DNA of 64,000 nucleotides. Origin: Shigella phage Sf21. The DNA lies in sequence record MF327007; one strand, 5' to 3'. The notes below the pieces were generated by a model. That model was not told the DNA's origin and did no database searches. It saw only the letters and a program-made list of their open reading frames with translations. Shown one piece after another: positions 1 to 5,407 of the stretch. The translations under genes were made by a program, and so were the position numbers. Each line of letters starts with the position of its first letter. The first letter of the stretch is position 1.

Positions 1-170
1 AGCTCACTCCAAACTTCTGTTATATTTACTGTGCCGTCGATGTTTAAAATAAAACAGTCAATCATTAATCCAATAAGACTACCTGTAAGAGCTGCAAATG
101 CTGATATGGCAAGAATTAATAGTGCCTCTGGAAACGAATATTTGACTTTATTTAGTTTTGGCTTTTGCAT
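1..170 (-). CDS. hypothetical membrane protein, N-terminal part only (ORF runs past window start)
   Basis: ATG at 168-170 (minus) with AGGAAT 6 nt upstream; hydrophobic start MQKPKLNKVKYSFPEALLILAISAFAALTGSLIGLMI; no stop before window edge. Confidence 0.3.
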   Translation of the reverse strand, partial: MQKPKLNKVKYSFPEALLILAISAFAALTGSLIGLMIDCFILNIDGTVNITEVWSE

Positions 171-565
171 CGTGATTCCTTAACAAATTTCATAATTTCA
201 TTAAATTCATACGCAGCAAGTTTAAGCTGATGTTCCTTTTTAATCTTTTTACACTGAGCTTTCCATTCGCGTACGCGTTTACGATAGTGTCTTCCTTGAT
301 ACCAGTATCCTACCCAATTTACAGGTACTAATAAAAATGGAACTACTAATGGAAGAATTAATACTAACAGAAATACTGTGTCTGATTCAATATCAGTAGT
401 AACATCTATAACTATTCCAATAATCATTAGGATTATAAATGATACAGCTGTCACAGGACCTACTAATACATCAGTAGGAATTAGCTGGCGCTTTAATTCA
501 TACTTCAACGGTTTACTTGGAAGGTATAGTGATGGTTTTGACATATTCTCTACATTCCTTAACAA
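152..565 (-). CDS. small integral membrane protein (hypothetical)
   Basis: 137-aa ORF with two hydrophobic helices (VSFIILMIIGIVIDV; FLLVLILPLVVPFLLV); start may be internal Met MSKPSLY. Confidence 0.45.
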   Translation of the reverse strand: MLRNVENMSKPSLYLPSKPLKYELKRQLIPTDVLVGPVTAVSFIILMIIGIVIDVTTDIESDTVFLLVLILPLVVPFLLVPVNWVGYWYQGRHYRKRVREWKAQCKKIKKEHQLKLAAYEFNEIMKFVKESRCKSQN

Positions 566-1127
566 ATTTTTCTAGTAATAAATCGCTTTCAAAATTGGGA
601 TTTTCTACGAATTTATCAAAAAGATCATCAACAATAGTTAAGATATTCTTTTTACTAAGAATACGTTTATTTTCATGCTTCGTTTCAGAATCAACTATAA
701 GAGTAAAGAAATATTTCTTGCCCTGAAATTTTACCGTAGTATCAATATAGAATAAATTTGACTTTTGTAAATTACGTTTAAACCATGCATCACTTAAACT
801 ATAAACGCCAAGATAATCATAATCGTCGTTTAAATAACAAACCGTCCATTCAGGAGAAATGAAATCAGTAAATTCAACATCAAAATCACACGTCAATGAA
901 TGAATTGATTCAATACTGTTAATGAGTATTCCAGGACGTATTAAAGACTTTTTACCTTTAGAAAATCTTCCGGAAAGGCTTTCATCAGTTTCATATGAAG
1001 ACCCCCAATAGTAATTACGTCCTTCTGCCATGCGTTTAAGAGCATTTAGTAATTGGTCTGGAACATCAACCTGTCTTTGGAACTCTTCAAACATTGAATT
1101 GAAATCACTTTGCATTTTCATTTTCAT
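513..1127 (-). CDS. hypothetical protein
   Basis: 204-aa ORF downstream of hairpin 1146-1166; no motif recognised. Confidence 0.5.
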   Translation of the reverse strand: MKMKMQSDFNSMFEEFQRQVDVPDQLLNALKRMAEGRNYYWGSSYETDESLSGRFSKGKKSLIRPGILINSIESIHSLTCDFDVEFTDFISPEWTVCYLNDDYDYLGVYSLSDAWFKRNLQKSNLFYIDTTVKFQGKKYFFTLIVDSETKHENKRILSKKNILTIVDDLFDKFVENPNFESDLLLEKFVKECREYVKTITIPSK

Positions 1128-1145
1128 TCCTATTTACTCCAAGTA

Positions 1146-1166
1146 TAAGGGGCCGAAGCCCCTTAT
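1146..1166 (-). terminator. stable UUCG-tetraloop hairpin (GGGGC-UUCG-GCCCC)
   Basis: palindrome TAAGGGGCCGAAGCCCCTTA right after stop of 1169..1762. Confidence 0.55.
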
Positions 1167-1168
1167 CA

Positions 1169-1762
1169 TTATTTCAGAGAATTAATGTATTCCTGAACAT
1201 CGGCAGAGGTAGTTTCAACCCCAGAAATATTACCGTTAAAGGTTTCAACTCGAGCAAGGGTATCTTCAATATCAACCTTAGTCAGTGCTGCAATTTCAAC
1301 TACATCATCAGCAGTACTAATTCCAAGGGCATTCGCAGCACGAGTTTCACGGATATATTCCAATTTAACTGCAAGTTCTTGGCGAGCATCATCTAACTCA
1401 ACTACTTTCTTGGCGATTTCAATTCGCATTTCAGCATAACCATCAGCTTTAGTAGTCAACTGCTCAGCTGTTCGACGATATAGTAAACCAAGTTTAGCAT
1501 GCATTGTTACATCTTGACCTTCCGAAAGAAGCTTGCGAATTTCACGCTCTTTTGATTCGGCCTGCTTATTCTTTTCGACAATAAGTTCACGAATACGCTT
1601 TTCTTCATTAATAGATTTAACAGAAGCAGTTTTTAGATCTTTAATCTTATCAAGTAGTTTTGCTGCTGCAGCAGTATACTGTTCTTCAACAGATAGATTT
1701 TTAGCCATAGCAGAACCAAGTTTAGTGCGAATAAACTCAACAATTTTCTTCAGTGTGTTCAT
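1169..1762 (-). CDS. coiled-coil protein with PspA/IM30-like architecture (tentative)
   Basis: 197 aa; SD AAGGAAAT before ATG at 1760-1762; N-terminal amphipathic segment then long K/E/R-rich helical region. Confidence 0.5.
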
Positions 1763-1805
1763 AGTATTTCCTTAGGTTAATTAAGATTTAAAATCCATGA
1801 GAGTA

Positions 1806-1982
1806 TTATACTCCGGATAGTTTGTAAACTATTTCAACATCGCCTTTTGCTGCTTTATAACCTTCAGCCCAAGATACAACCGAGTTTTTATCTGAAGATT
1901 CAAATTCTGGCATTGGGCTTTCGCCAATGTTCACGCAGTATGTTTCTTCATTTTCGTCGAACCAAATAATTAAAGTAGTCAT
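1806..1982 (-). CDS. small hypothetical protein (58 aa), not in ORF track
   Basis: ATG at 1980-1982 preceded by GGAGAAATAA; translates MTTLIIWFDENEETYCVNIGESPMPEF... Confidence 0.3.
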   Translation of the reverse strand: MTTLIIWFDENEETYCVNIGESPMPEFESSDKNSVVSWAEGYKAAKGDVEIVYKLSGV

Positions 1983-2051
1983 TTATTTCTCCGTTTCTGT
2001 ATTTGTTTTTGATAAGTCTATAATAACACCGTCCTTGGTGTTTGTACACAA

Positions 2052-2327
2052 TTATTTCATATTATTGAAATATTCTTCTGCGATTTCGTCGTTATCATGG
2101 TAAACTTTAGAAGACAGTTTAACATAACCTTCTGCCGTGAACATGTTAATCACAACCTTTACAGTATACCACTGACCGTCTTCATTACCCATTACTGCGT
2201 AAGTTTCAAACATCGGATGATCAGGACCGATAACTTTAATATCATTCACTGTACGACCGAAATCTTCTGAAACACATTTCATAAAGAAGTTGAACAGTTC
2301 GCCGTAATTATCCATTTCATTCTCCAA
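2052..2327 (-). CDS. hypothetical early protein
   Basis: 91-aa ORF directly downstream of early promoter GTTTAC-N18-TACTAT at 2358-2387. Confidence 0.5.
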   Translation of the reverse strand: MENEMDNYGELFNFFMKCVSEDFGRTVNDIKVIGPDHPMFETYAVMGNEDGQWYTVKVVINMFTAEGYVKLSSKVYHDNDEIAEEYFNNMK

Positions 2328-2357
2328 ATTGTTTTCTGTATCAGTAGTTGATAGTTG

Positions 2358-2387
2358 TATAGTACCATGGAAGAACAGGGATGTAAA
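2358..2387 (-). promoter_or_regulatory. T4-type early promoter (-35 GTTTAC, 18-nt spacer, -10 TACTAT)
   Basis: minus strand reads CACAAAACTGTTTAC-N18-TACTAT with A/T-rich upstream tract; precedes ORF 2052..2327. Confidence 0.7.
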
Positions 2388-2528
2388 CAGTTTTGTGAAA
2401 AAATTTTTTAAAAAGTTTTAGGGAATTCTAGGGTCAGGAGGGACAATTAAAAGGTAGGATAATATATTATAAAGGGTATAAACTAAATGATGCCCAGAGA
2501 GGCCCGGAAAGGCCTAGATACCAAAAAG

Positions 2529-2552
2529 CCCCAACCTTTCGGCTGGGGCTAA
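2529..2552 (-). terminator. intrinsic terminator hairpin with U-run
   Basis: minus strand AGCCCCAGCCGAAAGGTTGGGGCTTTTTGG after stop of 2558..3031. Confidence 0.7.
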
Positions 2553-2557
2553 GAATG

Positions 2558-3031
2558 TTATTTGATTTGTTTAGCAGACCAAATGCGGTCTTTAATAATT
2601 TTTTGGATGTCTTCAACATATTCAAGAGAGTGAACATGTGGGTTATCTTTGAAACTATAAGCACGAGCTAGCTTTTGGCCTTCAGTTTTGATTATCAAAA
2701 GTTCTTTAAGAATTGCTTCATACCTAGAGATAATTCCTTTAGCAATATTTTTTTCTTGTGCTGCTTTAGGATCAGCCTTAGGAGCAGGTTTACCTGAAGC
2801 CTTTGCAAAAGCAGCTCCAGTAGCAACTAAACTTTTCCAAGCCATACTAACTGCATTCCCTGTAAATCCTTCGGCTTTCATATCACGAGCAAATTGGAAT
2901 CGTGATTCATCGGAAGCATCTTTATAGGAATATTTACCCGCGGCAATGGCAGCTTTTGCAACAGCTTGAATTTCAGTGCTAGATGCTTCATTTAACACCG
3001 CTTCATTTAAAAATTGAGCATATGATTTCAT
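2558..3031 (-). CDS. Lys/Ala-rich protein with internal-protein-like N-terminus (candidate packaged protein)
   Basis: 157 aa; N-terminus MKSYAQFLNE resembles T4 internal-protein capsid targeting sequence; TATAAATA late promoter 37 nt upstream; flanked by near-identical hairpins. Confidence 0.5.
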   Translation of the reverse strand: MKSYAQFLNEAVLNEASSTEIQAVAKAAIAAGKYSYKDASDESRFQFARDMKAEGFTGNAVSMAWKSLVATGAAFAKASGKPAPKADPKAAQEKNIAKGIISRYEAILKELLIIKTEGQKLARAYSFKDNPHVHSLEYVEDIQKIIKDRIWSAKQIK

Positions 3032-3067
3032 CTTATTTCCTGTTTTAATTCGTGGTTTTAATATACT

Positions 3068-3075
3068 TATTTATA
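3068..3075 (-). promoter_or_regulatory. T4 late promoter core TATAAATA
   Basis: exact TATAAATA on minus strand 37 nt upstream of ATG of 2558..3031. Confidence 0.6.
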
Positions 3076-3082
3076 CTAAAAA

Positions 3083-3106
3083 GCCCCAACCTTTCGGTCG
3101 GGGCTA
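3083..3106 (-). terminator. intrinsic terminator hairpin with U-run (near-identical copy of 2529-2552)
   Basis: minus strand AGCCCCGACCGAAAGGTTGGGGCTTTTTAG immediately upstream of late promoter. Confidence 0.65.
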
Positions 3107-3109
3107 AGC

Positions 3110-3414
3110 CTTGCGGCAACCTTGTCGGGGTTCCACCTGCTAAGGCAAGTGTTTGTACGAAACGCCGGGATTCGAACCCGGTTATTAAGCAGTTGACGCT
3201 ACTCAATATTTTTAAAAGGCCATATCTCGACCATATCCGAACGTTCCGTCAAAAACGCTACTCGGCTTACGGCAAAGATATTTCCTCGAATCGATAATTC
3301 GGTGCGCCGTTTCTGCTGTGATGTAAGAGGGCATCAATAAACGCAAAGATTATTAACGCAATTCCTTACTCAGGGAACATCAGTCCGACGACTTACCGGT
3401 AGCGACCCGGTTTC
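3110..3414 (-). ncRNA. candidate small stable RNA region with tRNA-like T-arm (unassigned)
   Basis: ~300 bp without a credible ORF next to the tRNA cluster; minus strand carries CCGGG-TTCGAAT-CCCGG at 3166-3182 with a possible 7-bp acceptor pairing, but no standard D or anticodon arm. Confidence 0.25.
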
Positions 3415-3765
3415 TTAATATTCTTTTAAAGCATCAATATGTTCACGGCGTTTACGCCATAAATCAATTGCTTCATACGCGGATTCAGCATTTCGAATTG
3501 GACGGCATTTATATAAAGATTTGTGATTTTGATATTGCGTAGATAACGGAATTTTATCTAAAAGGTCTTTACGTTCAAAGTATTCGTAACCATCTAAGCC
3601 AAATGAACGATTTTTGAGAAATTGCCAATGACCAAATTCGTTTTGAATATAAATATAATCCGCGTGTTGATAAAGTAAATTAATTTCACGAAATGAGATA
3701 TGTTTTTCATATTCATTGAAGTAAAATGTTAAATCATGAACTACTAAATAAACATTACTTTTCAT
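3415..3765 (-). CDS. hypothetical protein
   Basis: 116-aa ORF; SD GAGGAAAAT before ATG at 3763-3765, immediately downstream of tRNA-Arg. Confidence 0.5.
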   Translation of the reverse strand: MKSNVYLVVHDLTFYFNEYEKHISFREINLLYQHADYIYIQNEFGHWQFLKNRSFGLDGYEYFERKDLLDKIPLSTQYQNHKSLYKCRPIRNAESAYEAIDLWRKRREHIDALKEY

Positions 3766-3783
3766 ATTTTCCTCACTTATAAT

Positions 3784-3859
3784 TGGTCGAGGCAGTAGGG
3801 ATCGAACCTACGACCCAGGACTTAGAAGGTCCTTGCTCTTCCTTCTGAGCTATGCCCCG
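3784..3859 (-). tRNA. tRNA-Arg (anticodon UCU)
   Basis: 76-nt cloverleaf read on minus strand; anticodon loop CUUCUAA; T-arm GTAGG-TTCGATC-CCTAC; CCA encoded. Confidence 0.85.
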
Positions 3860-3863
3860 TAAT

Positions 3864-3939
3864 TGGGGTGACCGATGGGAGTCGAACCCATGACTACGAG
3901 AATCACAATCTCGAGTTCTACCAACTGAACTACGGCCAC
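3864..3939 (-). tRNA. tRNA-His (anticodon GUG), no encoded G-1
   Basis: 76 nt; anticodon loop UUGUGAU identical to E. coli tRNA-His loop; discriminator C73; base at -1 is U not G. Confidence 0.7.
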
Positions 3940-4053
3940 ATTAATACCTACTCCAACAATCAAGATGTCTTCACACGAAATTAAGAGAAGAGTGATCAGT
4001 TCAACCCCTATAATCGCGTCAAGTAGATATTAATGTGACAGTTGTCACAAATT

Positions 4054-4128
4054 TGGCGGACGTGATAGGATTCGAACCTATAACCAATCGCTTAACAGGC
4101 GATCGCTCTGCCATTGAGCTACACATCC
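4054..4128 (-). tRNA. tRNA-Asn (anticodon GUU)
   Basis: 75 nt; anticodon stem ATCGC/GCGAT, loop CUGUUAA; T-arm ATAGG-TTCGAAT-CCTAT; CCA encoded. Confidence 0.8.
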
Positions 4129-4132
4129 AAAT

Positions 4133-4219
4133 TGGTGGGGAGTGGTGGAGTCGAACCACCCGAGTCGCAATGACAATGAATTTACAGTCCACACCGCTAC
4201 CTCTACGGGATAACTCCCC
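4133..4219 (-). tRNA. tRNA-Tyr (anticodon GUA), class II with long variable arm
   Basis: 87 nt; anticodon loop CUGUAAA with G-U containing stem; T-arm GGTGG-TTCGACT-CCACC; CCA encoded. Confidence 0.7.
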
Positions 4220-4232
4220 CTAATTCTTAATT

Positions 4233-4307
4233 TGGTGGCCCTGGGTGGAATTGAACCACCATCTGGCGATTATGAGTCGCTTGCTTGAACCTTCCAGCTA
4301 CAGGGCC
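4233..4307 (-). tRNA. tRNA with CAU anticodon (T4 tRNA-Ile-like, or Met)
   Basis: 75 nt; perfect 7-bp acceptor stem GGCCCTG/CAGGGCC; anticodon loop CUCAUAA; CCA encoded. Confidence 0.75.
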
Positions 4308-4308
4308 T

Positions 4309-4384
4309 TGGTGCTGATTGACGGAATCGAACCGCCGACCTTCTCATTACAAGTGAGTTGCTCTACCTACTGAGCTAAATCAGC
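4309..4384 (-). tRNA. tRNA-Thr (anticodon UGU)
   Basis: 76 nt; anticodon loop CUUGUAA; D-arm GCTC-AGTAGGTA-GAGC; CCA encoded. Confidence 0.85.
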
Positions 4385-4389
4385 AAAAC

Positions 4390-4479
4390 TGGCGGAGGCG
4401 ATAGGATTTGAACCTATGAGTCGCCGGAGCGACTGCCGGTTTTCAAGACCGGTGCATTAAACCACTCTGCCACGCCTCC
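4390..4479 (-). tRNA. tRNA-Ser (anticodon UGA), class II
   Basis: 90 nt; anticodon stem CCGGT/ACCGG, loop CUUGAAA; long variable arm; CCA encoded. Confidence 0.85.
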
Positions 4480-4481
4480 AG

Positions 4482-4555
4482 TCTCCGCGGCAGGATTTGA
4501 ACCTACGACATTCTGCTCCCAAAGCAGACGCTCTACCAAACTGAGCTACACGGAG
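4482..4555 (-). tRNA. tRNA-Pro (anticodon UGG)
   Basis: anticodon stem TCTGC/GCAGA, loop UUUGGGA; T-loop TTCAAAT; CCA not encoded. Confidence 0.8.
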
Positions 4556-4565
4556 TAAATTAAAT

Positions 4566-4639
<74 letters not shown>

Positions 4640-4644
4640 AAATT

Positions 4645-4731
4645 TGGTGCGAGAAGTGGGACTCGAACCCACAAGGAAATCATTCCGCAGCATTTTAAGT
4701 GCTGTGCCTTTACCAATTTGACCATTCTCGC
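4645..4731 (-). tRNA. tRNA-Leu (anticodon UAA), class II
   Basis: 87 nt; anticodon stem CAGCA/TGCTG, loop CUUAAAA; long variable arm; CCA encoded. Confidence 0.85.
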
Positions 4732-4732
4732 G

Positions 4733-4805
4733 CTGGGAATAAAGGACTCGAACCTTTGCATCTAGCAGTCAAAGTGCTATGCCTTACCAACTTGGCTAAT
4801 TCCCA
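4733..4805 (-). tRNA. tRNA-Gln (anticodon UUG)
   Basis: 73 nt; anticodon stem TAGCA/TGCTA, loop CUUUGAC; CCA not encoded; abuts tRNA-Leu. Confidence 0.85.
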
Positions 4806-4891
4806 ATTATTAACAAAGGCTCTCAAACAAGAACCCTTGATGATAGAGGGTATTAATCAGTGCGGTATGAGTTAATAATAACAAATAATTC

Positions 4892-5407
4892 TTAAAGCAA
4901 ATTAAACATTTTAACGGTCGGCAAAACAATTTCTTCTTCTATATAAGAGTATTTAACACTCTCAACTACACGCAAAAAATCATAATCATAATACTCAGAA
5001 GCATTACCTAAAATATTAATAAGTCCTTCAAGCACTTTATTACCATTCACAAAGAATAAGTCAAATACGCGTTCTTCGTCTTCTTCGGATTTATTACCAA
5101 GGTCAACTTCTATATCAAAGACCTTTTTAATGAATTCTGGATAAAGTTGTTCTGAGAACAGTCCTTCAACCAAGTATTCATAAATAAAAAGCGATTGCTC
5201 GCTGAACAAGCCATTACCACAATAACGTTCAGCTTTAGTACTAGAATGTCTACTTTTAAACTTCTTTAAAAGATATTGAAATTGTAAGATTTCATGCTCT
5301 TCTACGCCAAACAGTGTTTTAGTTTTATAGTTGTCACCATCATTTTCCCAGGTAGTGACATCAATTACGTAACCCTGTGGAATTGTAGTACCTAAACAAA
5401 TATTCAT
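4892..5407 (-). CDS. hypothetical early protein
   Basis: 171-aa ORF, first of four translationally coupled (ATGA-overlap) minus-strand ORFs. Confidence 0.55.
   Translation of the reverse strand: MNICLGTTIPQGYVIDVTTWENDGDNYKTKTLFGVEEHEILQFQYLLKKFKSRHSSTKAERYCGNGLFSEQSLFIYEYLVEGLFSEQLYPEFIKKVFDIEVDLGNKSEEDEERVFDLFFVNGNKVLEGLINILGNASEYYDYDFLRVVESVKYSYIEEEIVLPTVKMFNLL

Follow-up and report, generated by a model that had tools for sequence, protein, structure and literature searches.

The left edge of the window, the 64,000 nucleotides of Shigella phage Sf21 (sequence record MF327007) that were analysed, carries a T4-type early gene cluster, e.8 - e.7' - e.6 - e.5 - e.4 - e.3, on the minus strand. 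Its genes and signals are listed below.

1..170, minus strand: N-terminus of e.3, a membrane protein of 120 aa, with 56 codons present and the remainder left of the window; 77% identical to T4 e.3 (residues 1-56)
152..544, minus strand: e.4, a 130-aa two-TM inner-membrane protein; 83% identical to T4 e.4; phrog_2604
175..190 and 554..569, minus strand: the two copies of a 16-nt exact direct repeat, AAATTTGTTAAGGAAT
513..1121, minus strand: e.5, 202 aa, with the C-terminal tag FVKECR; 95% identical to T4 e.5; phrog_2607
549..566, minus strand: codons of the e.5 tag F-V-K-E-C-R, overlapping the e.4 Shine-Dalgarno sequence AAGGA
1145..1166, minus strand: stem-loop of 9 bp with a UUCG loop (-15.6 kcal/mol), 5 nt past the e.6 stop codon and ahead of e.5
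1169..1762, minus strand: e.6, 197 aa, very probably a phage protein of the PspA/IM30 family; 100% identical to T4 e.6; phrog_1203
1800..1829, minus strand: promoter counterpart upstream of e.6, located by alignment to T4 L13089, which annotates a promoter there
1806..1982, minus strand: 58-aa acidic ORF in the e.7 position, a cassette replacement non-homologous to T4 e.7; phrog_5461
2020..2048, minus strand: second, similar promoter-like site upstream of the 58-aa ORF
2052..2315, minus strand: e.8, acidic and soluble, 87 aa, encoded by the gene that opens the early transcription unit; 99% identical to T4 e.8; phrog_2678
2359..2387, minus strand: sigma-70 / T4-early-type promoter-like site upstream of e.8 (TTTACA, 17-nt spacer, TACTAT, with TG)

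The genes follow the canonical T4 order (e - nudE - e.2 - e.3 - e.4 - e.5 - e.6 - e.7 - e.8 - rnaC/D - tRNAs), and orthology and synteny with T4 hold from e.3 to e.8, e.7 excepted, between the lysozyme gene e and the tRNA cluster. Of all virulent phages, T4 has been studied best, and the e.x region is dispensable in it; to our knowledge, e.2 to e.8 have been without an assigned function for decades. The T4 records annotate e.3, e.4, e.5, e.6 and e.8 as hypothetical only, and T4 e.6 (NP_049742) is named msp3 in GenBank L13089, where gene order and orientation are as in Sf21. All ORFs listed by the initial annotation are present on the minus strand where it placed them. Its statement that they are not T4 genes and do not follow the T4 gene order was wrong: the order is canonical, the proteins are 77-100% identical, and e.7 alone is swapped.

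Sf21 differs from T4 in that the 112-aa T4 e.7 is replaced by the unrelated 58-aa ORF, which has no BLAST match to it, and in that additional ORFs lie between e.8 and the tRNAs. The boundaries of the e.7 swap are visible in the alignment to L13089. For e.5, the open frame spans 513..1127 (204 aa), with in-frame ATGs at 1127 and 1124 upstream of the T4-equivalent start at 1121; the e.4 frame spans 152..565, with its T4-equivalent start at 544. L13089 also annotates promoters at the places equivalent to the 2359..2387 and 2020..2048 sites. The promoter counterpart at 1800..1829 was missed by a consensus scan; its -35 box, GTTTACA, is conserved, and its -10 box, TACTCT, at 17-nt spacing, is degenerate. 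We regard the cluster genes as real and expressed, because the same proteins occur in >1,000 phage genomes and because T4 e.4, e.5 and e.6 proteins were detected in a published time course, with early RNA in T4 (PMC9697503 supplements).

Relationship of e.6 to PspA and Vipp1

From its sequence, e.6 is very probably a diverged member of the PspA/IM30/Vipp1 family, and thereby of the bacterial ESCRT-III superfamily. Significant similarity appeared only when a diverse family profile (alignment A2) was used. As a single sequence, e.6 matched nothing significantly in Pfam, PDB (phmmer), NCBIfam or PADLOC; in particular, T4/Sf21 e.6 alone lies below the gathering threshold of PF04012, with no match at E <= 1, and a narrow T4-like profile reached 20.6% against Vipp1 (hhalign). 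With A2, the alignment to Vipp1 rose to 94.2% (hhalign, E 1.1e-7) over 136 columns, pairing residues 1-138 with 1-140. Searched against PDB (hmmsearch), the A2 profile found Vipp1 best (E 8.5e-5) and had nine Vipp1/PspA sequences among its top matches, all colinear from residue 1 (1-146 to 1-147); E. coli PspA (4whe) was far weaker, at E 1.3.

Two distant members of the e.6 family pass the PF04012 cut-off of 33.9 bits, P0068 with 39.0 bits and P0066 with 35.1 bits, and both are tied to the T4-type e.6 profile over full length, at E 4e-20 and 4e-21, respectively. In total, 5 of 38 family members match PF04012, and none of the 38 has a Pfam match to Snf7 (PF03357). These data, together with the structural comparison below, bear out the initial annotation, which had read 1169..1762 as a PspA/IM30/Vipp1-type protein. 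That e.6 is instead a plain coiled coil among unrelated accessory genes, resembling PspA through composition and helical periodicity, is very improbable, given the end-to-end colinear match from Met1 to nine distinct Vipp1/PspA sequences, the two members above the curated Pfam threshold, the hhalign result, and a control in which A2 scored Vipp1(1-149) at 28.1 bits, the reversed sequence at -1.7 and 2,000 ordinary and heptad-preserving shuffles at <=7.8.

Structure prediction (AF2) gave e.6 a helix at residues 2-22, aligned to Vipp1 alpha0 from Met1, followed by a long hairpin of alpha1 (25-80) and alpha2/3 (86-145). The model thus places in e.6 a long alpha1-alpha2/3 helical hairpin as in the ESCRT-III core fold. 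pLDDT is 83-96 in the hairpin and <50 in alpha0 and in residues 156-181. A Foldseek search, a check which the initial annotation had suggested, ranked Vipp1 first: the best 8 PDB matches were all Vipp1, followed by the archaeal ESCRT-III protein CdvB2. Values were modest (E 5e-3 and weaker, TM-score 0.42-0.52), and CdvB2 and Snf7 were weaker structural matches than Vipp1. The "K/E/R-rich helical repeats" described previously stand as to composition (34% K/R/E/D) and predicted helix (2-145); literal sequence repeats are absent. Likewise, the amphipathic character assigned to the N-terminal segment is moderate, with a hydrophobic moment of 0.45 and flanking Lys and Arg.

The homology covers the first ~140 residues of e.6, i.e., alpha0 and the alpha1-alpha3 hairpin. 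Vipp1/IM30 and PspA (PF04012; PDB 7o3w, 6zvr, 8qfv, 4whe) have an N-terminal amphipathic helix, as is predicted for e.6, and then an alpha1-alpha2/3 hairpin. They differ from e.6 in length (about 220-260 aa versus 197 aa) and in the remainder of the chain: the C-terminal ~50-55 residues of e.6 are specific to the phage family and do not align to PspA alpha4/alpha5, and the T4-type sequence stays under the Pfam threshold. Residues 147-197 are conserved in the phage family and were modelled with low confidence except for short helices at 151-160 and 186-196. A further difference is that e.6 comes from a virulent phage, where its partners are phage-specific and PspF/B/C are missing. The label "host specificity protein", which e.6 bears in some records, was unsupported by any search.

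The conserved unit and its C-terminal tag

Related e.6 loci were gathered with alignment A1, and their ORFs were called crudely, from the first ATG. An e.5-family gene lies directly downstream of e.6 in 41 of 44 loci (local jackhmmer, whose E-values relate to a pool of only 866 ORFs). The hairpin follows right after the e.6 stop codon in every locus examined, and L13089 also annotates a stem_loop there. Among 18 versions of this hairpin, RNAalifold found 6 pairs, all 6 with compensatory double changes. In Aeromonas phages, the e.6-e.5 pair adjoins nrdD/nrdG instead of the tRNA and e genes. Sequence comparison of these loci indicates that e.6 is part of a conserved unit comprising the hairpin, an e.5-family gene and, in most lineages, small inner-membrane proteins; loci of Aeromonas and RB43-type phages are without membrane-protein neighbours.

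The e.5 protein is modelled as a soluble alpha/beta protein, with a fold predicted at low confidence (pLDDT 61). Profile searches with e.5 against PDB, Pfam and NCBIfam were empty. Small alarmone synthetases (RelQ/RelP) were its top Foldseek matches, with probability <=0.25 and a TM-score of ~0.2; these matches were too weak to use, there was no sequence-profile match, and inspection by eye did not reveal the catalytic motifs of the RelA/SpoT synthetase fold.

Hydropathy analysis found no transmembrane core in e.6 or e.5. It found two in e.4, in agreement with the earlier description of a two-helix membrane protein, and one in the partial e.3 ORF, which starts at 170 and is the hydrophobic ORF that had been seen to run off the window; the full e.3 gene is known from KAW1E185 and T4. 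Both termini of e.4 are predicted to be cytoplasmic (positive-inside rule). Paralogy of e.3 and e.4 is unsupported: their likeness (BLAST E 0.91) is confined to the region of the tag described below. No neighbour protein had a Pfam, NCBIfam or PADLOC match to PspB, PspC, PspF or LiaI, no cluster component matched the PADLOC defence-system library, and no AAA ATPase, such as a Vps4/CdvC-type partner, was found in the neighbourhood of e.6.

The e.5 protein ends in F-[IV]-x-x-C-[RK], in its long form [hydrophobic]-[D/E]-x-F-[I/V]-x-x-C-[R/K], and so do many downstream proteins that are otherwise unrelated, most of them membrane proteins. The short form was counted 92 times in the final 45 residues of proteins from 21 BLAST clusters, and 0 times elsewhere in the 87,340 residues that make up the non-e.5 ORFs of the same loci, the tag having been defined from these very sequences and then counted in the same loci. 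It is carried by e.5 in 42 of 48 cases, and 49 of the 50 other carriers lie downstream of e.6. In the 64-kb window, e.5 is the only real gene with F[IV]xxC[RK]; e.4 ends in a variant, FVKESRCK, and full-length e.3 in relatives ends in EFV(S/I)DCRKIK. By prediction, the tagged tails face the cytoplasm. Ackermannviridae have an analogous tag (I-[V/I]-x-x-A-R-[G/S]-R): directly after their PspA-like genes come tiny membrane proteins that span the membrane once and end in IVxxAR(G/S)RR. Comparative support for the membrane partners that the initial annotation had proposed comes from the conservation of the e.6-e.5 pair and from the C-terminal tag common to adjacent membrane proteins.

In Sf21, each copy of AAATTTGTTAAGGAAT encodes the tag residues K-F-V-K-E together with the Shine-Dalgarno sequence of the following gene. 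We rejected the idea that the tag is a mere by-product of such a DNA element (ribosome-binding or recombination site), because it is encoded by 67 DNA versions with free use of synonymous codons and because, in Aeromonas and RB43-type phages, it occurs away from gene junctions. The codon usage reveals protein-level selection.

The tag may be real and yet unrelated to e.6. A host or phage enzyme, e.g., a protease or one that modifies arginine or cysteine, might read it as a signal for degradation, modification or targeting, and its closeness to e.6 would then reflect no more than the site of a gene-shuffling hotspot. The invariance of Cys and Arg/Lys hints at chemistry over simple helix packing, some carriers are small soluble proteins and not membrane anchors, the T4-type tag shares sequence with the ribosome-binding site of the gene that follows, and in Aeromonas phages e.6 and e.5 are present but tagged membrane proteins are not. 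Against this, the PspA-like gene is the sole gene common to all tag-bearing clusters, in two phage families whose tags are analogous though different in sequence; e.5, the obligate neighbour of e.6, is itself tagged in most cases; and codon usage shows that selection acts on the protein. We consider a signal unconnected with e.6 possible but not probable. The docking of proteins to e.6 through the tags is itself a tentative proposal, and should be read as doubtful.

Possible functions of the e.6 module

The arrangement of the locus recalls the PspA-PspB/PspC and LiaH-LiaI systems, in which a PspA-family gene also adjoins small inner-membrane proteins with cytoplasmic tails. These are effector-anchor pairs: PspB/C recruit PspA, and LiaI recruits LiaH. 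The e.6 locus differs in that its proteins have no sequence similarity to PspB, PspC or LiaI, in that several interchangeable membrane proteins take the place of one, and in that the phages have an extra constant soluble partner, e.5. We know of no short C-terminal tag of this kind in bacterial Psp/Lia systems.

On this basis, we propose the following model. The e.6 protein would be produced from early transcripts, in excess over its neighbours because the hairpin would terminate or stabilise its mRNA. It would bind the cytoplasmic face of the inner membrane via alpha0 and polymerise as PspA and Vipp1 do. Its recruitment or regulation would fall to the tagged tails that e.5 and the small membrane proteins carry, just as PspB/C recruit PspA and LiaI recruits LiaH. 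The polymer would maintain a sealed inner membrane and the proton-motive force; the threats countered may include the puncture made by injection, the loading of holin, superinfecting phage and membrane-depolarising defence effectors. Taken whole, the explanation that a T4-type cluster carries an e.6-based module for sealing the inner membrane is in our judgement evenly balanced. A role of e.6 in membrane maintenance, suggested by its sequence, is plausible, if just short of an even call. The broader proposal of a phage Psp-like system, in which an ESCRT-III-type e.6 polymer, an obligate e.5 and exchangeable, tag-addressed proteins act together in T4-like phages and Ackermannviridae, is speculative and rather unlikely.

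Members of this family have been noticed before. Gp_125 of the Salmonella Kuttervirus SeF3a, which belongs to the same PHROG as Sf21 e.6 (phrog_1203), was described in 2022 as a PspA homologue, likewise from profile comparison, and as a candidate anti-Abi factor (PMC9409062). That work deals with a phage of the Ackermannviridae and is silent on T4 e.6, the e.5 partner, the hairpin and the tag; the function was hypothesised. We found no naming of T4 e.6, NP_049742 or T4p129 in the papers searched. Neither e.2 to e.8 nor PspA appears in the main text of the genome-wide T4 screens CRISPRi-ART and HIDEN-SEQ, and phage-encoded members are absent from two recent reviews covering the Psp and ESCRT-III families.

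The anti-Abi proposal for Kuttervirus fits a reading in which e.6 is a PspA homologue serving conflict, blocking depolarising Abi or defence effectors or aiding superinfection exclusion, with the variable tagged membrane proteins as an arms-race arsenal. The tagged downstream genes are indeed highly variable and shuffled among related phages (21 clusters), the genes are early, and cassette swaps occur in the region of the cluster. However, known defence and counter-defence models match none of the components, and e.6 itself is strongly conserved, being found in >1,100 phage records and 100% identical across many Tequatrovirus genomes; such conservation is more in keeping with core physiology than with an arms-race gene. 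We regard a dedicated function in conflict as unlikely.

It is highly unlikely that e.6 is a mimic or decoy of host PspA, which would bind PspF, PspB/C or PspA to silence or hijack the phage-shock response. The part conserved in e.6 is alpha0-alpha3, which in E. coli PspA carries the regulatory contacts, and the polymer-forming alpha4/alpha5 are not recognisably conserved. T4 shuts off host transcription early, though, so there would be little gain from regulating a sigma-54 operon. Moreover, homologues of e.6 are found, together with conserved partners that the phages themselves encode, across phages of many hosts, Aeromonas and Proteus among them, and a self-contained phage module is therefore favoured over a decoy.

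The relationship of e.6 to PspA and Vipp1 would bring virulent phages of bacteria into the ESCRT-III superfamily. Injection of T4 DNA is followed by a transient depolarisation of the inner membrane and then by recovery, and T4-infected cells keep their proton-motive force until the holin fires, and for hours in lysis inhibition. An early PspA/ESCRT-III homologue such as e.6 is a concrete candidate behind these old observations. The common C-terminal tag on interchangeable membrane proteins suggests a principle of recruitment, open to test in one of the most tractable genetic systems, and the proposed e.6 module as a whole is directly testable in T4. If true, the model would reveal a tag-based logic of recruitment, unrecognised until now, for a bacterial ESCRT-III homologue, and a way in which a phage reseals and energises the membrane of its host, sets the timing of lysis, or defeats membrane-depolarising immunity.

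T4 gene order at the left edge

The window belongs to Tequatrovirus. Its first 4 kb align with Escherichia phage KAW1E185 at 95.7%, and for hundreds of T4-like genomes the figure is 90-96%. All left-edge genes lie on the minus strand, and BLASTP against T4 proteins assigned them as follows:

3..170, minus strand: e.3, first 56 residues (partial), 77% identity to T4
152..544, minus strand: e.4, 83% identity to T4
513..1121, minus strand: e.5, 95% identity to T4
1169..1762, minus strand: e.6, 100% identity to T4
1806..1982, minus strand: 58-aa ORF in the position of T4 e.7, unrelated to e.7 by BLASTP
2052..2315, minus strand: e.8, 99% identity to T4

The initial annotation had observed these ORFs correctly. 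Its statement that they are not T4 genes and do not follow T4 order was wrong, because both the BLASTP assignments and the order match T4; in annotated relatives and in T4 itself, the order is e (lysozyme) - nudE - e.2 - e.3 - e.4 - e.5 - e.6 - e.7 - e.8 - rnaC/rnaD - tRNA cluster. The genes are known T4 ORFs.

In T4, these genes are transcribed as early RNA, and the proteins e.4, e.5 and e.8 are early, with e.6 appearing in the middle period (PMC9697503 supplements). In L13089 ('msp1-msp8'), an old GenBank record of T4, promoters are marked upstream of e.8, e.7 and e.6, and a stem-loop is marked downstream of e.6. In the window, the e.6 promoter has kept its -35 box and has a degenerate -10 element, and the following sites were found:

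2387..2359, minus strand: T4-early-type promoter-like site before e.8, kept in the window
2048..2020, minus strand: second T4-early-type promoter-like site, before the 58-aa ORF
1145..1166, minus strand: stem-loop after e.6, UUCG loop, -15.6 kcal/mol

Several differences from T4 lie to the right of e.6. The 112-aa e.7 is swapped for the unrelated, acidic 58-aa ORF (phrog_5461), with boundaries near 2050 and 1829. Since the swap begins just past the stop codon of e.8 and reaches the e.6 promoter at its GTTTACA -35 box, this ORF looks like a cassette exchanged along with its own early promoter. A 157-aa ORF (phrog_2280; 2558..3031, minus strand) has no counterpart among the T4 genes e.2-e.8 or in the T4 e.8-rnaC interval and is flanked by two near-identical terminator-like hairpins, AGCCCCGACCGAAAGGTTGGGGCT and AGCCCCAGCCGAAAGGTTGGGGCT (3105..3082 and 2550..2527), each followed by a T-run, which suggests insertion as a gene cassette whose terminator was duplicated. 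The window also carries a 116-aa ORF (phrog_3355; 3415..3765, minus strand) between tRNA-Arg and the position of rnaC/rnaD, a place where T4 has no gene; neither rnaC nor rnaD was reported in 1..5000 at the Rfam gathering threshold. The tRNA cluster (3784..4805, minus strand) comprises 11 genes (Arg, His, Asn, Tyr, Met, Thr, Ser, Pro, Gly, Leu, Gln), without the homing-endonuclease gene segB; the T4 cluster comprises 8 tRNAs, Ile among them, and encloses segB.

Relationship of e.6 to the PspA/IM30 family

By itself, the e.6 sequence had no significant match in Pfam, PDB, NCBIfam or PADLOC, and in PHROGs it belongs to phrog_1203, whose function is unknown. Its homologues form a compact family of about 195-205 aa, with only 45 clusters among 1.84 billion cluster representatives in an exhaustive profile search; identifiable members occur in Straboviridae and Ackermannviridae phages, and the remainder are in unclassified metagenomic contigs.

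Profile comparisons agreed with the PspA-like character proposed for 1169..1762 in the initial annotation. When a diverse alignment of the family (A2), which takes in distant members to 18% identity, was searched against PDB sequences with hmmsearch, Vipp1 ranked top (E 8.5e-5) and nine distinct Vipp1/PspA sequences were among the best matches, all colinear from residue 1 to about 146 in each protein; E. coli PspA (4whe) was far lower, with E 1.3. In hhalign, A2 aligned residues 1-138 to residues 1-140 of a cyanobacterial Vipp1 alignment (94.2% probability, E 1.1e-7). Pfam PspA_IM30 was matched directly by 5 of 38 family members, two of them above the curated cut-off of 33.9 bits (P0068, 39.0; P0066, 35.1), and both of these distant members are joined to the T4-type profile over their full length at E about 1e-20. 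As counter-evidence, a narrow T4-like profile reached just 20.6% in hhalign. A generic coiled coil is an unlikely explanation of such matches; in a composition control with reversed Vipp1 and 1,000 ordinary plus 1,000 heptad-preserving shuffles, A2 scored Vipp1(1-149) at 28.1 bits, the reversed sequence at -1.7 and the shuffles at 7.8 or less.

The AlphaFold2 model of e.6 (mean pLDDT 74) has a low-confidence N-terminal helix (2-22), a long hairpin (25-80 and 86-145, pLDDT 83-96) and an ill-defined C-terminal part with short helices. In Foldseek against PDB, Vipp1 took the first 8 places (probability 1.00, E from 5e-3, TM-score 0.42-0.51), ahead of archaeal ESCRT-III CdvB2. Also as counter-evidence, the final ~55 residues did not align with PspA alpha4/alpha5. 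Mainly on profile-level evidence, and in agreement with the predicted fold, we place e.6 in the PspA/IM30 family (bacterial ESCRT-III superfamily) as a diverged protein with a family-specific C-terminus.

Several GenBank/UniRef records of e.6 homologues (e.g., ESh16, EC.W14-2, VR20) carry the name 'host specificity protein', which none of the searches supported and which appears to spread through automated annotation. In phage RB43 (3300..3950 of its locus), the homologue is frameshifted, with the N-terminal part and the residues from ~100 in different frames, and the annotation covers just the C-terminal 97 aa. The frameshift marks either a pseudogene or an error in sequencing.

The e.6-e.5 pair, its hairpin and a shared C-terminal tag

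We compared 40 viral loci whose e.6 relatives show 49-99% identity, together with several more distant loci, and found a partner gene, a hairpin and a C-terminal tag as common features. An ORF for a soluble protein of 178-315 aa begins 30-67 nt past e.6. A local jackhmmer search seeded with the e.5 of the window converged on the ORF right after e.6 in 41 of 44 loci (866 ORFs; E-values relate to this small pool), and in Aeromonas phages the pair is located beside nrdD/nrdG and not between the tRNAs and e; these data argue that e.6 and e.5 move as a pair. The e.5 family evolves so fast that BLAST does not join its subfamilies. Larger phages (two Aeromonas phages of about 230 kb and one phage of 235 kb) have two tandem e.5-family genes after e.6. 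The e.6-e.5 gap always contains a stable GC-rich hairpin whose sequence varies by lineage; RNAalifold on 18 versions predicted six pairs, each of which shows compensatory double changes. A terminator-like T-run comes after some versions but not after the T4-type ones.

Proteins of the e.5 family end in F-[I/V]-x-x-C-[R/K], in most cases with hydrophobic-acidic-x ahead of it. This tag also closes many otherwise unrelated proteins encoded just downstream, including the two-transmembrane proteins e.3 and e.2, e.4 (variant FVKESRCK), and small membrane or soluble proteins in Mosig-, Dhaka-, Moon-, Winkler- and Jiaoda-type phages. Defined after being seen in these loci, with ORFs called crudely from the first ATG, it occurred 92 times within the final 45 residues, in 21 BLAST clusters, and was absent from every other position in the non-e.5 ORFs of these loci (87,340 residues). 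All but one of the 50 non-e.5 carriers lie downstream of e.6, and in the whole 64-kb window e.5 is the sole real gene bearing the tag. The tag might be unrelated to e.6. The window tag overlaps an exact 16-nt repeat that also holds the Shine-Dalgarno sequence of the next gene; in Aeromonas and RB43-type phages the tag is away from gene junctions. Selection on the tag acts on the protein, since synonymous codons are interchanged freely among its 67 distinct DNA versions. For e.4 and e.2, the positive-inside rule predicts that the tagged tails are cytoplasmic.

A second recurrent C-terminal motif, G-x-W-[V/I]-S-S-S-x-x-C (e.g., VGAWVSSSEMC, GGWVSSSSEC), is found in tandem small ORFs (65-106 aa) of Mosig-, Dhaka-, Jiaoda- and Moon-type phages (loci L017-L034, L038-L042, L049 and L050), roughly 0.9-1.6 kb downstream of e.6. 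They form a further family of small proteins with tagged tails within the same hyperplastic region.

The PspA-like gene of Ackermannviridae, seen in Agtrevirus pSal-SNUABM-02 and in a related metagenomic contig, is of the Pfam-positive type. Downstream of it come a gene for a protein with a transmembrane segment at its N-terminus and then genes for 1-3 tiny single-pass membrane proteins, whose endings (IVENARGRRR, IVNKARGRRK, IVSQARSRRQ, IIKHARSRTRQ) are an analogous tag. At a very distant locus, a six-transmembrane protein ending in IDSIIEHSKRN is encoded immediately upstream. Membrane-protein neighbours are not universal, as Aeromonas and RB43-type phages show the e.6-e.5 pair only.

A possible role at the inner membrane

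In the literature searched, no paper named T4 e.6, two reviews covering the Psp and ESCRT-III families are silent on phage-encoded members, and we found no account of e.6 and e.5 as an obligate pair, of the hairpin with its covariation or of the shared tag. PspA homology of phrog_1203 was noted once, for a Kuttervirus protein, and an anti-abortive-infection role was proposed for it (PMC9409062).

An unlikely reading is that the e.6 protein serves as a decoy for host Psp. We favor a membrane-protective role, in which early transcripts would yield e.6 and the hairpin would end or stabilise its message, letting the polymer-forming protein reach higher levels than its partners. In the manner of PspA/Vipp1, e.6 would attach via alpha0 to the inner membrane on its cytoplasmic side and assemble through its hairpin core, and the tail common to e.5 and the small membrane proteins would serve to recruit or regulate e.6, with PspB/C-PspA and LiaI-LiaH as analogues. 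The benefit would be an inner membrane that stays sealed and energised during infection: it would recover after injection, tolerate holin build-up and lysis inhibition, and resist superinfection or membrane-depolarising defence.
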